Position numbers and translations under genes: made by a program | Shown: positions 54,932 through 60,733 of the stretch, in pieces | Layout of the letters: every line of letters begins with the position of its first letter | Position numbering within the stretch: the first letter of the stretch is position 1 | The notes under the pieces: generated by a model | Told to the model about the DNA's origin: nothing | The model's input: the letters and a program-made list of their open reading frames with translations, nothing else | The model's database searches: none | Assembly: GCA_016789725.1 (NCBI GenBank) | Contig: JAEUQN010000004.1 | Span: forward strand, 99-64,098 | Direction: 5' to 3' | DNA from: Blastocatellia bacterium | Lineage (GTDB): Bacteria; Acidobacteriota; Blastocatellia; RBC074 | DNA length: 64,000 nucleotides

Positions 54932-55384
54932 TTATTTACGTGAGGCTGTTTTTAGGTCAATCACCTTCGGGCGACTGACCGGCGTACATAAGTCCGCAAT
55001 GGTCGTTTGATCCAGCACGCCGAGCATTGCGGCGCGCGTGCGTGCCCACAGCGTTTTTAGTCCACAACCATCTTCAAATTCGCACGGTTCGTAATCCGAA
55101 GTGCTGACACAGCCCATCGGAGCGATACGACCGTCCAGAGTGCGAATGACTTCGCCCGCCGTGATTAAAGTTGCCGGACGCATCAGGCGATACCCGCCGC
55201 CGACGCCCACTTGACCGCTAATAATTCCGGCTTCTTTTAGGGTTTTCAGGATTTGCTCCAAGTATTTCACAGGAACGCTCCACTTCTCCGCGATTTCGCG
55301 GGCAGGCGTCGCTTCATGACTGTTTTTGCCAGCCAGGTAAATCAGCGCGCGCAACCCATATTCGCTTTTGGTGGAGACGTTCAT
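54932..55384 (-). CDS. Rrf2 family transcriptional regulator with three-Cys cluster motif (IscR/CymR-like)
   Basis: MNVSTKSEYGLRALIYLA winged helix, followed by C-x9-C-x5-C (GCVSTSDYEPCEFEDGCG). Confidence 0.9.
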   Translation of the reverse strand: MNVSTKSEYGLRALIYLAGKNSHEATPAREIAEKWSVPVKYLEQILKTLKEAGIISGQVGVGGGYRLMRPATLITAGEVIRTLDGRIAPMGCVSTSDYEPCEFEDGCGLKTLWARTRAAMLGVLDQTTIADLCTPVSRPKVIDLKTASRK

Positions 55385-55493
55385 ACCTAATTCCCATTAA
55401 GACAGTGGGAGTTTTACACCAAACAAAAATATGCGTCAACGGCTAACTCATCTTTTTTCGCGCACCCGTTACGTTTTACGAAACTGGTGTCCG

Positions 55494-56186
55494 TTAGACT
55501 TCCAGTTTTACGGTTGGTTTGGTGTTGGGAAAGATTTTTTCTACGGCGGCTTGCTTGGGCATTCCATACGCATTCACGGGCTGCGAACGATTGACCCACA
55601 ACGTGTAATACAGGTGATCGGCGCGCGGATCAGTGGTGTTCGGATGCAACAGAATGGTCAGGCCCAAACTATTAAGCTGTAACCACGGCACAATGATCGG
55701 CAACAGGTCGTTGGTGAAACCGAAATAGAACGATGGTGTGACGTGCGGGCCGCGCGGTTCCAGATTCCAATTGCCTAATTCCACGGGAAAGCGTTCAAGA
55801 GACCACTTGCGCACGAGCGCCGCTTTCTCGTAGCTATCTTCGTCGAAGTAAAAATGCGCGTGATAGCTCTTGATATCTGTGTAGGGGCGCGGTGCTTTGG
55901 GCAAGCCCGCCTCTTCGCCCGGTCGAATGTTTTTCGGACGCGGCGTCAGTTCCTTGATCGTTTCGTAACCCCACGGACTCTTGCCCACATCGGGCGGCGG
56001 CACAATTGGCTTGAACGATAAACCATTAGCGGCGGCATCTTGTGCTTCAGCTTCAATGTTGCCTGCTGTTAATCCGGCAGCAGTTAGTCCTGCACCAATG
56101 ATGAAGTTGCGACGTGTCGGCGCAAGCCAATCCGCCCACGCTTGATCCTCTTCTGTGTTTTGAATGATTCGTTCTTCGCTCGACAT
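55494..56186 (-). CDS. Tat-leader DOPA 4,5-dioxygenase family (DODA-like) protein
   Basis: Leader TRRNFIIGAGLTAAGLTAG. Core YHAHFYFDE...GPHVTPSF...VPWLQLNSLGLTILLHPNT...DH matches the DOPA_dioxygen family pattern (from memory). Confidence 0.7.
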   Translation of the reverse strand: MSSEERIIQNTEEDQAWADWLAPTRRNFIIGAGLTAAGLTAGNIEAEAQDAAANGLSFKPIVPPPDVGKSPWGYETIKELTPRPKNIRPGEEAGLPKAPRPYTDIKSYHAHFYFDEDSYEKAALVRKWSLERFPVELGNWNLEPRGPHVTPSFYFGFTNDLLPIIVPWLQLNSLGLTILLHPNTTDPRADHLYYTLWVNRSQPVNAYGMPKQAAVEKIFPNTKPTVKLEV

Positions 56187-56211
56187 AAATGCCTCCTCGT
56201 TTCGATGTTCA

Positions 56212-58215
56212 CTAAATCAATCCTGCACCGCGTCCGTTTTTGAGATTCCAGATCGCGGCGATCAGCGCATCAATTTCTTCGCAGGTGTTATAAAACGCGA
56301 GCGACGGACGGACGGTGCTTTCCACGCCGAAGCGCCGCAAAATCGGTTGCGCGCAATGATGACCGGTGCGCACAGCAATCCCCTCTTTGTTCAGCGCCTG
56401 TCCGACTTCATCGTTGGTAAAGCCGTCTAATACGAACGACAACACGCTCGCCTTTTCGCGCGCCGTGCCGATCAAACGCAAGCCGGGGATGCGCTGCAAT
56501 CCTTCGGTCGCATAGACCAGCAAATCGTGTTCGTAGCGTGCGATGTTTTCCATCCCGATGCGATCTACATAATCAATCGCTGCACCTAAACCGACCGCAT
56601 CGGCAATGCTGCCCGTACCAGCTTCAAAGCGGAACGGCGCAGGATGGTAGACCGTTTTCTCGAACGTCACATCCACGATCATATTGCCGCCGCCTTGCCA
56701 CGGAGGCGTCGCTTGCAGCACGTCTTCTTTGCCGTAGACTACGCCAATGCCCGTTGGCGCGAAAACCTTGTGACCAGAGAAAACATAAAAATCGCAGTCG
56801 TAAGCCTGCACGTCTACGCGCATGTGCGAAACAGCTTGCGCACCGTCCACCAGCACTTTTGCGCCGTAGCGATGCGCGATGGCGACCATTTCTGGCACGG
56901 GCGTGACCGTGCCAAGCGCGTTGGAGACTTGTGCAAAAGCCACAAGTTTTGTTTTTGGCCCCAGCAGTTTTTCGTATTCGTCGAGCAGAACCTGCCCGCT
57001 GTTGTCTACCGGAGCGACACGCAATCGTGCGCCTTTTTCGGCACACAACATTTGCCACGGCACGATGTTGGCGTGATGCTCCAAATGGCTCACGACAATC
57101 TCATCGCCTTCGTGGATGTTTTGTGCGCCCCAGCTTTTGGCGACGAGGTTAATCGCCTCTGTCGCCCCACGCACGAACACGATTTCGCGCGTCGAGCTGG
57201 CGTTTAGAAAGCGCCGCACTTTTTCGCGCGCTCCGTCATACGCATCGGTCGAGCGCGCCGCCAATTCGTGTGCGGCGCGATGCACGTTGGAATTTTCGTG
57301 TTCGTAAAAATACTTCAGACGATCAATCACTGCTTGCGGTTTTTGCGTCGTCGCCGCGTTGTCTAACCAAATCAACGGACGCCCGTTGACACGCTCCTGC
57401 AAAATCGGAAAGTCGCGCCGCACCGCATTCACATCGAACAATCCAACTGACAAGGCGGATTGCGGCGGCAAATTCGGATCGTTGCCAACTGGTTCCAGAA
57501 CAGGCGCAACTGCTGTGAGCGAACGCGCAGAATCCAAAAACGGAAACGACGTCGCATCGTAACCACGTGGCACAGGCGCACCCGGAATTTGCGGCGTAGC
57601 GACTGAAGCAACAGGCATCGTCGGAACCAATGTTGGCGCGTGTCCCGGCAACGTCGGCGCATATCCACGCACTTCGGTTTCGGTCGGCAGCTTGATGGCA
57701 GGCATCGCCACTTGCTCTGTCTGCTTCACCGTTTGCTCAAACAGAGAACGCGCTTCGCTCAAAAATCCAAACGAAGGCACATCCGAAAAATCTGCTGCCG
57801 ACGCGCCGCCGGGAATGCCGAGCGCGTTGGGTTCGGCCAACAGAAGCTGCGCCGGGGAAGTGGGAATCGTCGTGCCGCTGATGCCCGCCGCTTCAGCCGC
57901 CACTTTGTGCAACTCTGCTTCTGTGAGATGCGGCGGTGCAGAGATAGCAGACAGATGCGGCGCGACACCAAACGGAGAATAGGTCGCAGGCGGCGCAGCG
58001 CGTGTCGGCAGATTTGTCAGCGCGGCTTCTGGCGTTTGCGGAATGTTTGGCGCGGGCAATTCACTCGCAGCGCCCTGTTGCTGCAACCCCTGATAAATCT
58101 GATTGGCAAAGCGCGCCAAGACCGTTGGATCAGGCAAGCCAGCGGCCAAGGCTTGTGCTGCGCCAGACAAATCCGCCGCAATGTCTTCGGGCGTGAAATT
58201 AGTATTTGTACTCAT
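56212..58215 (-). CDS. cysteine desulfurase (SufS/CsdA-like class V PLP enzyme) with ~255-aa disordered N-terminal encapsulin-loading domain
   Basis: Start at ATG 58215 (MSTNTNF). The N-terminal part is Pro/Ala-rich and contains LARFANQIY. The C-terminal part has RDFPIL...IWLDNAATTQKP, SGHKVFAPTGIG (PLP Lys) and RTGHHCAQP (catalytic Cys). Confidence 0.9.
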   Translation of the reverse strand: MSTNTNFTPEDIAADLSGAAQALAAGLPDPTVLARFANQIYQGLQQQGAASELPAPNIPQTPEAALTNLPTRAAPPATYSPFGVAPHLSAISAPPHLTEAELHKVAAEAAGISGTTIPTSPAQLLLAEPNALGIPGGASAADFSDVPSFGFLSEARSLFEQTVKQTEQVAMPAIKLPTETEVRGYAPTLPGHAPTLVPTMPVASVATPQIPGAPVPRGYDATSFPFLDSARSLTAVAPVLEPVGNDPNLPPQSALSVGLFDVNAVRRDFPILQERVNGRPLIWLDNAATTQKPQAVIDRLKYFYEHENSNVHRAAHELAARSTDAYDGAREKVRRFLNASSTREIVFVRGATEAINLVAKSWGAQNIHEGDEIVVSHLEHHANIVPWQMLCAEKGARLRVAPVDNSGQVLLDEYEKLLGPKTKLVAFAQVSNALGTVTPVPEMVAIAHRYGAKVLVDGAQAVSHMRVDVQAYDCDFYVFSGHKVFAPTGIGVVYGKEDVLQATPPWQGGGNMIVDVTFEKTVYHPAPFRFEAGTGSIADAVGLGAAIDYVDRIGMENIARYEHDLLVYATEGLQRIPGLRLIGTAREKASVLSFVLDGFTNDEVGQALNKEGIAVRTGHHCAQPILRRFGVESTVRPSLAFYNTCEEIDALIAAIWNLKNGRGAGLI

Positions 58216-59146
58216 GATAGTTTCCGACTTCCACGTCATCGAGGGCAGCAATCGCATCGTCCGTCAGAATCGCGGCGGAGCAATACAACGACACCAGATA
58301 TGAACCAACTGCATTGTGATTCAGGCCCATAAATCGCACGGACAGTCCCGGCGTTTGTTCGCCCGGCAAGCCCGGTTGATACAGTCCGACAACACCTTGT
58401 TTTTGCTCGCCAACGCGCAACAACAAAATGCTAGTCTTGCCGCCTTCGCCCACAGCCGGAGCTGTTTTGCCGTCCACCATTAACTTATCAGTTGGAACTA
58501 AAGGAATGCCGCGCCACGTCAAAAATGATGAACCGAACAATGTTGCCGTCGGCGGAGGCACGCCGCGTCGTGTGCATTCGCGTCCGAACGCCGCAATCGC
58601 GCGCGGATGCGCCAGAAAGAACGATGGTTCTTTCCACACTTTAGAAATCAAATCATCCAGATCATCCGGCGTCGGCGGTCCTTTGCGCGTTTTGATGCGC
58701 TGTGCGGCAGGCACGTTTTTCAGCAAGCCGTAATCGTCGTTGTTAATGAGTTCGCTTTCCTGCCGTTCTTTGACAGTTTCGATGGTCAAGCGCAATTGCT
58801 CTTTGATTTGATCGTATGGATTGCTGTACAGGTCAGACGTGCGCGTGTGAACGTCCAGCAAGGCCGAGATGGAATTCAGCGTGTATTCACGCGGCTTTTC
58901 TTCATACGGCACATAAGTGTCGGGTAATGGCTGGGTTTCTTCCTGCCCGCAAACAACATCTACCGGATTATCGCTGACGACGCGATTGACGCGCAGCGTG
59001 CCTGCTTCGAGGGGTTTCCAATCCAGCAACCGCACCAGCCAGCGCGGCGTGATTGCGCCATACTGCGGCGGGGTTTTCGTGACATTGGCCAATTGATAGG
59101 CCGCTTGATCGCTGAGGGTGTGACGTACTTTATCGTTCTTAGCCAT
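58199..59146 (-). CDS. Family 2A encapsulin shell protein (HK97-fold, SrpI/MMP-I-like)
   Basis: 315 aa. Full-length block similarity (from memory) to Family 2A encapsulins: ITPRWLVRLLDWKPLEAGTLRVNRVV, PREYTLNSISALLDVHTRTSDLY, QLRLTIETVKERQESEL, PTPDDLDDLISKVWKEPSFFLAHPRAIAAFGRECTRRGVPPP, KQGVVGLYQPGLPGEQTPGLSVRFMG. No cNMP-binding insertion. Confidence 0.9.
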   Translation of the reverse strand: MAKNDKVRHTLSDQAAYQLANVTKTPPQYGAITPRWLVRLLDWKPLEAGTLRVNRVVSDNPVDVVCGQEETQPLPDTYVPYEEKPREYTLNSISALLDVHTRTSDLYSNPYDQIKEQLRLTIETVKERQESELINNDDYGLLKNVPAAQRIKTRKGPPTPDDLDDLISKVWKEPSFFLAHPRAIAAFGRECTRRGVPPPTATLFGSSFLTWRGIPLVPTDKLMVDGKTAPAVGEGGKTSILLLRVGEQKQGVVGLYQPGLPGEQTPGLSVRFMGLNHNAVGSYLVSLYCSAAILTDDAIAALDDVEVGNYHEYKY

Positions 59147-59159
59147 GATCTTTCCCTGG

Positions 59160-59173
59160 GAGAAATATTTCTC
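59160..59173. promoter_or_regulatory. 14-bp perfect palindrome just upstream of the encapsulin start (candidate operator)
   Basis: GAGAAATATTTCTC lies 14-27 nt upstream of ATG 59146. CTCGTAG is repeated at 59171 and 59221 (50 nt apart). Confidence 0.3.
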
Positions 59174-59293
59174 GTAGTTTGGTTATTTTCGCAGCAACGG
59201 ATGAACGTCTATTGCCCATACTCGTAGCTCATTTTTCGGCGTAAGTTCCACACAATGTCATAACTCTTGTCAAGGATCATCTCGAAAAACTCG

Positions 59294-60733
59294 TCAAAGT
59301 TTGCGCGAAGAAAAATGCCGTTGCGCTTGCGAACGATACTGATTCCACTGCGTAGGCAAGCCCGATTTAGTAGCCAGCAAAATTTCCAAAATAGCGCGGC
59401 GATCTTTGGGTGAAAGTTTGGCGTAGGCGGGAGATTGATCCTGTCCTGTTAAGACTTCCAGCAACCGACGATAGACATATTCTTTCGCGGGCGCGGGCAA
59501 GGCCTCGAACGCTTCAGAGTAAATCAGATAGCTGCACGGATATTTGAAGAGCCGCGTTTGCAAATCGAATTCGCGCAGCGAACGTCCGCGCTTGTCGTGC
59601 GGCCCGCGCGCGGCGAATTCCTCGGCAAACGACGTGCTGCCCTGAATGCGAGTGCCGAGCGGCGCTTCGTTTACAAAAAGCAGATACCGCACCAATTCTT
59701 CGGCAGGGGCTTCAAACTTGCGCCGCGCGGCTTCGGATATTTCGTGCGCGGGCAGCCCTGCCGCTTGGTTGCGAATGGCATCTTCGTGCAGCGCCAGACG
59801 GGTCTGATAGTTCGTGAGCGTAATCAGATTGTGCATCTGTGTCTGATGCGCCTGCACGAGTTGTGCCACGATGTCGCTGTGCGGCGTGAGATAGGGTGAG
59901 GTATCAAATCGTTTCGTCAGATCATTCAAGTTGGCCCCGGCGGCACGGTCAAGCTCTTCGGGATTTTCCTTATTGGTCACGACCACATTGCCCAGATGTG
60001 TTTGCTCGCCGTGTTTGCCCGTCACGTACCAGCCGCCAAAGCGTTCGCTCAAGGGGCTTTCGTTCCCGGTCACAAACGACGCGGCGCGCGTGGCCTGTGT
60101 GCCGGAAGGATTGGTGTAGACCGAACGCACAAACACACCGGGTACGCCGCGCGTGGCTGCCGCTACGTGGCATTGCGTGCAATCCAATTCGGCGCGCTCA
60201 AACGTGGGGCGTTCCAGCTTTTCAGTATCCGTTTCGTTGAGCTTTTGCTCGTCGAGAATATAAAAAATCGCGCCTTGTACCGGATCGAACGAAGCGATTT
60301 CCAAGACCTTGCCTTCTTTCACCCAACCGACATACACATCGTCATTGAAGTACAAGGCACGCGGCGTTTGAGGCGAAATTCTCTTGTACTGAAAACTCGT
60401 TTTGGAAAAGACGAGCGTTTGCGAATTGACGGGAATATTCAATTCCTTCAGGACGGATCTCAGATAGCCAGTTCCCGGCTCAAATTTCAGGCGCACTTCG
60501 CCCTTGTCAATGCGCTGTTGTAATTTCGCTACCGGATCATTGACCGGCGCAGTGCGATAGTTGATCGGCGCTTCGCTGAACGGCACGAAGCCCTGATTTC
60601 TAACCGCGATTTGTCCGTGCAACGGCAACGCCAACACGCCCAACACCAATGCACAGGCAACGATCAGCAGCTTGGTTGTTATGGTTTTAGAATTTGTTTG
60701 CATACGCATCTCCACAGTAAGTTGATGATTCAA
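59294..60733 (-). CDS. secreted hypothetical protein with a single CXXCH heme-c motif
   Basis: Signal/TM segment (LLIVACALVLGVLALPLHG). Contains ELDCTQCHVAAA. No family recognised. Alternative starts at 60709 and 60703. Confidence 0.65.
   Translation of the reverse strand: MNHQLTVEMRMQTNSKTITTKLLIVACALVLGVLALPLHGQIAVRNQGFVPFSEAPINYRTAPVNDPVAKLQQRIDKGEVRLKFEPGTGYLRSVLKELNIPVNSQTLVFSKTSFQYKRISPQTPRALYFNDDVYVGWVKEGKVLEIASFDPVQGAIFYILDEQKLNETDTEKLERPTFERAELDCTQCHVAAATRGVPGVFVRSVYTNPSGTQATRAASFVTGNESPLSERFGGWYVTGKHGEQTHLGNVVVTNKENPEELDRAAGANLNDLTKRFDTSPYLTPHSDIVAQLVQAHQTQMHNLITLTNYQTRLALHEDAIRNQAAGLPAHEISEAARRKFEAPAEELVRYLLFVNEAPLGTRIQGSTSFAEEFAARGPHDKRGRSLREFDLQTRLFKYPCSYLIYSEAFEALPAPAKEYVYRRLLEVLTGQDQSPAYAKLSPKDRRAILEILLATKSGLPTQWNQYRSQAQRHFSSRKL

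Follow-up and report, generated by a model that had tools for sequence, protein, structure and literature searches.

The 64,000-nucleotide stretch of DNA analysed here (the window) comes from a Blastocatellia bacterium (GenBank assembly GCA_016789725.1, contig JAEUQN010000004.1, positions 99 to 64,098). Its minus strand carries a gene for a Family 2A encapsulin shell (58199..59146, 315 residues) and, directly downstream of it, a gene for a Family 2A encapsulin-associated cysteine desulfurase, the cargo gene (56212..58215, 667 residues from a conserved M-S-T start). The subject of this report is the N-terminal tail of the desulfurase (residues 1-259; 57439..58215, minus strand), an Ala/Pro-rich and largely disordered region, by prediction, that appears to be a cargo-loading domain, and in particular the motif LARFANQIY close to its beginning (residues 33-41; 58093-58119, minus strand). 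An earlier sequence-only reading of the window had placed the motif there, near the desulfurase N-terminus, and on translation the position is exact; the stretch it quoted, APNIPQTPEAALTNLPTRAAPPATYSPFGVAPHLSAISAPPHL, was found as well. The reading had also likened it to a published motif of the form LARLANEFF, and rightly so: in desulfurases associated with SrpI, Nichols et al. reported two motifs of the disordered N-terminal domain, LARLANEFFS and AASPYYFLDG (2021, eLife, PMC8049743), and LARFANQIY is a local form of the first of these.

The cargo protein scores 899.5 bits against the NCBIfam family NF041166, above the cut-off of 800, and the alignment (residues 35-672 of the longest open reading frame (ORF) to profile positions 12-623) begins before the motif; judged by sequence, it is therefore an orthologue of the Synechococcus elongatus CyD, Acinetobacter baumannii CD and Mycobacterium smegmatis Enc-CD proteins. 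Its C-terminal ~400 residues are a SufS-type class II desulfurase dependent on pyridoxal 5′-phosphate (PLP) (TIGR01979, 565 bits; PF00266, E=3.8e-148, spanning residues 296-665 of the long ORF), and both the PLP-lysine SGHK (at 480) and the catalytic-Cys GHHCAQP (at 618) were found. The nearest solved structure of the catalytic domain is 8KG1 (E=1.6e-189, aligned from residue 258); compared with 8KG1 and E. coli SufS structures, SufS homology begins at residue 258-260. The limits that the sequence-only reading gave for the tail, 57441-58215, hold up: the upper one is the conserved ATG and the lower one lies within one codon of the start of SufS homology.

The longest minus-strand ORF, 56212-58257, gives a 681-residue translation whose N-terminal part includes AAGLPDPTVLARFANQIYQGLQQQ and whose N-terminal stretch reads QALAAGLPDPTVLARFANQIYQGLQQQGAASELPAPNIPQTPEAALTNLPTRAAPPATYSPFGVAPHLSAISAPPHL; it is open up to an ATG at 58257, within the shell gene. 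Of the in-frame ATGs, the third, at 58215 (M15 of the longest ORF), is the most likely start of the cargo gene, because an identical database protein (P0005, 667 residues) begins at the same ATG and because the N-terminus M-S-T-(S/N) is kept in at least 90% of orthologues. The in-frame ATGs at 58257 and 58239 were rejected as starts: the N-terminus that orthologues share is the MST at 58215, and the codons above it fall in the 3′ end of the shell gene, which was counted against both.

The shell is the presumed binding partner of the tail. It scores 513 bits against NF041162 (cut-off 380) and matches PF19307 (SrpI-like) at E=1e-103, and its best matches in the Protein Data Bank (PDB) by phmmer are 8T6R from A. 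baumannii (E=2e-139) and 6X8M, which is SrpI (E=5e-132). At 315 residues it lacks an inserted domain, in keeping with what defines Family 2A (an HK97 fold with no insertion that binds cyclic nucleotide monophosphates). Residues F272 and Y283 align with F262 and Y273 of SrpI, which lie beside cargo density; across 12 diverse shells both are invariant. Relative to the solved shells 8T6R and 6X8M there is a 9-residue insertion, GKTAPAVGE, at shell residues 226-234 (58445-58471); most of the 80 related shells described below have an insertion of 8 or 9 residues at this site.

Composition and conserved islands of the tail

The tail differs from the catalytic domain in composition. Residues 1-263 are 16.7% Ala, 13.7% Pro, 8.4% Thr, 7.2% Ser and 6.5% Gly, so that Pro, Ala and Gly together make up 36.9% (24.3% in the catalytic domain), and 52.5% once Ser and Thr are added (32.7% in the catalytic domain). 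Charged residues fall to 11.8% from 22%, and there is no Trp or Cys. The sequence-only reading had called the tail Pro/Ala/Gly-rich, which is right for Ala and Pro and wrong for Gly, lower here than in the catalytic domain (8.4%): the tail is Ala/Pro(/Thr/Ser)-rich, and Gly is not enriched. It had also seen no recognisable fold, and a search with the 259-residue tail at E<=10 matched no Pfam family and no PDB chain. AlphaFold2, run on the full protein with a 27-sequence alignment, gave predicted local distance difference test (pLDDT) scores below 50 at residues 46-274. The sole longer helix that it placed in the tail, at residues 30-48, covers LARFANQIY and has the highest pLDDT of the tail, and short helices fall on two further motifs described below. 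The model is poor (mean pLDDT 47, with the catalytic domain patchy too) and served only to place the helix at 30-48 and, weakly, to support disorder.

To avoid circularity, related loci were gathered by shell similarity alone. The resulting 80 loci span Acidobacteriota, Bacteroidota, Ignavibacteria, Planctomycetota, Leptospira, Armatimonadota, Hydrogenedentota, Melainabacteria, Cyanobacteria and a betaproteobacterium. At 78 loci the shell stop is where a desulfurase begins whose N-terminus is extended by ~110 to 540 residues, and the extension is a homologous tail in 78 of these 78; in the other two, contig ends cut the gene and a tail fragment is still visible. The sequence-only reading had proposed aligning tails beside Family 2A shells, and the alignment finds its motif conserved: a profile of motif 1 (the island around LARFANQIY) scores above all 1,560 shuffled tails in 66 of the 78 tails, and at one more locus, L031, the island lies on a frameshifted fragment. 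Across the 66 tails the core consensus is L(53) A(56) R(50) M/L(61) A(66) N(54) E(56) F(54) F(58). In a local-pair alignment of all tails, the best-conserved island is AGLPDPA.LARMANEFF..LP, followed by P..PGG, S..PSFSFL.EARPLF, PQ.PG and F.FL...R.L, a set that agrees with the “five relatively short motifs” described by Benisch et al. (2024, PMC10836720). A search with the tail alone returned 28 relatives with the consensus AAGLPDPAxLARLANEF; exact LARFANQIY is common only to the 3 closest (identity at least 84%), and in other members of its clade the motif ends in ELY or EMY.

In the window, the motif 1 island reads AGLPDPTVLARFANQIYQG (residues 25-43; 58087..58143, minus strand) and is predicted to form an amphipathic helix with a PDP N-cap. 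The helical hydrophobic moment of TVLARFANQIYQGLQQ is 0.60, a value reached by 0.06% of shuffles (p=0.0006). One face of the helix would consist of V32, L33, F36, A37, I40, Y41 and L44, and Pro-Asp-Pro stands ahead of it. Against the motif profile the 19-residue island scores 42.1 bits (E=2.3e-10), and the next match in a six-frame scan of the 7.77-Mb genome scores 9.9 bits.

Three further motifs follow on the same strand. Motif 2, VPSFGFLSEARSLFE (residues 146-160; 57736..57780), is the first of two F-x-F-L-x-x-A-R copies and of the same kind as the published AASPYYFLDG; its profile beats every shuffle in 70 of the 78 tails, and F149, F151 and R156 are at least 90% conserved. A little upstream of it lies the P..PGG island, LGIPGGASA (57796..57822), whose PGG is kept in 70-90% of the 78 tails. 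Motif 3, KLPTETEVRG (residues 175-184; 57664..57693), exceeds the shuffle maximum in 23 of 78 and is conserved in part of the family only. Motif 4, SFPFLDSARSL (residues 223-233; 57517..57549), is the second F-x-F-L-x-x-A-R copy. The AASPYYFLDG or F-x-F-L type of motif is thus present twice, as SFGFLSEARSLF (148-159) and SFPFLDSARSL, the equivalence to the S. elongatus motif being by pattern.

Tail length varies widely among the loci. Tails reach ~530 residues (Acidobacteriota loci L072, L073 and L075), and those of Leptospira (L042, L047, L048, L052, L055, L061 and L064) have ~110 residues and a degenerate motif 1, for example DPNLIAEWSKKFF. The number of F-x-F-L-x-x-A-R copies, from 0 to 3, increases with tail length (r=0.61), which suggests that motif modules are gained and lost. 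The desulfurase frame is split or shortened in five contigs from metagenome-assembled genomes (MAGs; L025, L028, L031, L032 and L044), through assembly frameshifts or as real pseudogenes.

Carriers of the tail and the genes around it

The sequence-only reading had offered LARFANQIY as a variant motif with which further cargo could be found, and had proposed searching the genome for LAR[FL]AN. This part did not bear out. The hexamer gives 8 matches in the six-frame ORFs of the genome, 7 of them unrelated and without the PDP context; on its own it is near chance level and not long enough to single out cargo. When the genome was searched with profiles of motifs 1-4 and of the whole tail, the desulfurase was the sole carrier. 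A match of the whole-tail profile at the N-terminal edge of another SufS-type desulfurase, on contig C4, was dismissed: the tail set held ~25 residues of the SufS domain. That enzyme, a 419-residue minus-strand ORF and the genome's other SufS-type desulfurase, starts at its catalytic domain (EFDVAKVRADFPIL) and has no tail. It is presumably the housekeeping enzyme and provides an internal control: the tail is specific to the shell-linked copy. The genome holds one shell gene only.

The same picture emerges from wider searches. When the 80 loci were scanned for the tail motifs, every extra match proved to be part of the same desulfurase gene, frameshifted or truncated. A profile built from 47 tails and searched against 1.84 billion representative proteins gave 328 matches, and no other cargo class was found among the best 150 of them; the 20 longest of these 150 comprise 12 Aminotran_5 proteins and 8 truncated or frameshifted desulfurase fragments, and the motif 1 core is present in 122 of the 150. 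The tail has thus been seen only on cysteine desulfurases. For cargo hunting, a profile of the 20-residue island works cleanly, whereas short regular expressions like LAR[FL]AN are unfit.

The shell and cargo genes overlap by 17 nucleotides (58199..58215, minus strand; cATGAGTACAAATACTAA), from the cargo start codon to the shell stop codon. The overlap is 14 nucleotides in 42 loci and 17 in 9, which accounts for 51 of the 51 loci in which both gene ends could be located, and this constancy suggests a translational coupling that may be conserved across phyla. The cargo ATG sits within the conserved C-terminal codons of the shell (..Y-H-E-Y-K..), so the M-S-T-(S/N) of the cargo is set by the reading frame of the shell.

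The neighbouring genes include those for a sulfate-binding protein and an Rrf2 regulator, with thiol-redox genes upstream, and agree with the sulfur context described for Family 2A systems. Immediately after the cargo gene, 25 nucleotides downstream, comes a DOPA 4,5-dioxygenase-family gene (55494-56186, minus strand; PF08883 at residues 108-205, preceded by an N-terminal extension of ~100 residues), then the Rrf2 regulator gene and then the sulfate-binding protein gene. Scans of 55300-59400 found no promoter-like site, and terminator-like sites no more often than at shuffle level.

How the tail may load the desulfurase

With a probability of about 0.88, we read residues 1-259 as a disordered cargo-loading domain of Family 2A (SrpI/Mmp1 type), in which LARFANQIY is the lineage-specific form of the LAR[M/L]ANEFF core. 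This reading rests on the NF041166 match, which covers the motif; on the shell gene upstream with its 17-nucleotide overlap and the desulfurase downstream of the shell at 78 of 80 loci; on the conservation of motif 1 and its predicted amphipathic helix; on the conserved shell residues; on published loading experiments; and on the second SufS, which is tail-less. The analysis demonstrates that the protein is an orthologue, that its gene adjoins the shell gene, that the motif islands are conserved, that motif 1 has helix propensity and that the tail has no other carrier in the searches made; we infer that motif 1 itself contacts the shell, and at which site. The match to the published motif, which the sequence-only reading took to support encapsulation, probably does so: the protein is an NF041166 orthologue, the shell gene adjoins, and the motif is kept at loci selected by their shells.

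In the mechanism that we propose, the island of ~20 residues (AGLPDPxxLARxANxxx..L) would form a short amphipathic helix after its Pro-Asp-Pro cap, and the hydrophobic face of this helix would dock on a conserved non-polar patch of the inner surface of the shell; candidate patches are the threefold axis (F272/Y283) and the area under the A-domain. Both F-x-F-L-x-x-A-R motifs and the smaller islands would bind other patches, joined by long Pro/Ala-rich linkers. With several motifs on separate patches, loading would be multivalent and partly redundant. The tethered SufS-type dimer would then work inside the shell, from an operon that includes sulfate-uptake genes. Motif 1 is read here as one of several short linear motifs that jointly tether the desulfurase dimer to the shell lumen. 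At least three more short motifs are conserved alongside it, and hence it is not the sole targeting signal, as the published truncations also argue: single motifs are insufficient and either half of a tail is enough.

Those experiments also bear on a different reading, in which LARFANQIY would work alone as a targeting peptide, as the short C-terminal peptides of Family 1 cargo do, and would be the sole determinant of encapsulation with the rest of the tail as spacer. Motif 1 is the best-conserved island of the tail, and in S. elongatus residues 1-100, which include the motif, load green fluorescent protein (GFP) (PMC8049743). However, they load it less well than residues 1-225 do (PMC8049743), and in M. 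smegmatis the single motifs (1-21, 35-55 and 107-121) fail to load cargo, whereas half a tail is enough, be it the leading 50 residues or the middle region (Tang et al., 2024, Commun Biol, PMC11659603). In addition, cryo-electron microscopy (cryo-EM) of the A. baumannii system reveals contact densities at several distinct places (Benisch, Andreas and Giessen, 2024, Sci Adv, PMC10836720), and about 12 of the 78 tails have no recognisable motif 1. We regard a self-sufficient peptide as improbable. The AASPYYFLDG segment of S. elongatus gives no loading by itself (PMC8049743). The tail as a whole is necessary for loading and sufficient to load GFP (PMC8049743, PMC11659603).

Less probable still is that the island serves a role away from the shell, such as touching a sulfur acceptor, regulating the desulfurase or taking part in translation coupling with the shell gene, and that the other motifs bring about encapsulation. 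In its favour, the motif is not tied to a shell contact in any structure, and motif 1 is degenerate in the short-tailed Leptospira cargo. But the M. smegmatis enzyme keeps its basal activity unchanged after removal of the tail (PMC11659603), and the tail is confined to shell-adjacent desulfurases. As for translation coupling, the motif lies at least 72 nucleotides downstream of the gene overlap and is conserved at the protein level while codons and phyla vary. Finally, a chance resemblance to LARLANEFF in a low-complexity region, for which one could cite the 8 occurrences of LAR[FL]AN in the genome, is counted as refuted by the score of the extended island (42 bits against 9.9 for the next best genome-wide) and by its column-for-column alignment with the motif in orthologues.

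Several observations weigh against the cargo-loading reading. LARFANQIY departs from the consensus at 4 of its 9 positions (4, 7, 8 and 9, with F for M/L, Q for E and I-Y for F-F). The low pLDDT of the tail is weak evidence of disorder, coming as it does from a weak model overall. No published structure assigns cargo sequence to the shell densities, and the loading experiments cover the S. elongatus, A. baumannii and M. smegmatis orthologues only. Motif 1 may even be dispensable, since Leptospira and some further short tails retain the shell with no more than a degenerate form of it.

The departures from consensus raise a further idea, that the Q-I-Y, E-L-Y and E-M-Y endings of this clade (Blastocatellia-like Acidobacteriota) are co-adapted with the shell pocket and give a distinct shell-cargo specificity. 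Shells of the clade do carry specific substitutions, for example T103, Y256 and N278, and a co-adapted pair of motif and pocket would, if real, be a natural orthogonal loading tag relative to the LARMANEFF majority. We hold the idea to be unlikely. Co-variation between motif and shell (Y9 against F9) was rejected as evidence: all 7 of the 7 Y9 sequences belong to one clade, so that shared ancestry confounds the 15 shell columns that tell the two groups apart. Y256 fails as a co-adapted position, since SrpI has Tyr there alongside an FF motif.

Comparison with known desulfurase encapsulins

The locus is a standard desulfurase encapsulin, a putative sulfur-storage nanocompartment in a soil-type Acidobacteriota genome, with a tail that follows the published plan; this much is already known, and the locus adds little past confirmation of the annotation. 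What the cross-phylum, shell-anchored view contributes is the finding that, in a tail which otherwise evolves fast, AGLPDPxxLAR[M/L]ANEFF is conserved more strongly than any other island.

A close parallel is S. elongatus PCC 7942 (CyD, Synpcc7942_B2661; SrpI, PDB 6X8M/6X8T), where a Family 2A shell gene is likewise followed by a SufS-type desulfurase with a disordered N-terminal domain of ~225-260 residues, in which a motif of the LARLANEFFS type comes early and one of the aromatic-F-L type later. The shell residues flanking cargo density are conserved (F262/Y273 in SrpI, F272/Y283 here), and both systems lie in a sulfur-acquisition context. The window differs in its LARFANQIY version of the motif, in its two F-x-F-L-x-x-A-R copies and in the 9-residue shell insertion (226-234). 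Its operon partners are sbp-cysTW, the Rrf2 regulator and the DOPA-dioxygenase-like gene, whereas the S. elongatus plasmid locus has srpGH and rhodanese genes. The phylum differs too, the nearest relatives here being Acidobacteriota/Blastocatellia MAGs. The desulfurase encapsulin of A. baumannii 118362 (8T6R) is the closest PDB match of the shell; its cargo-loading domain, of ~225 residues, is Pro/Gly/Ser-rich and has five partly conserved short motifs, whereas the tail in the window is Ala/Pro/Thr-rich. Like the cargo of M. smegmatis Mmp1 (Enc-CD; PDB 8WOL, 8WON and 8KG1), the desulfurase described here has a disordered N-terminal tail, in its case by prediction, with multiple short motifs; the M. 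smegmatis tail is shorter, at 155 residues, and directs loading through motifs that proved individually insufficient.

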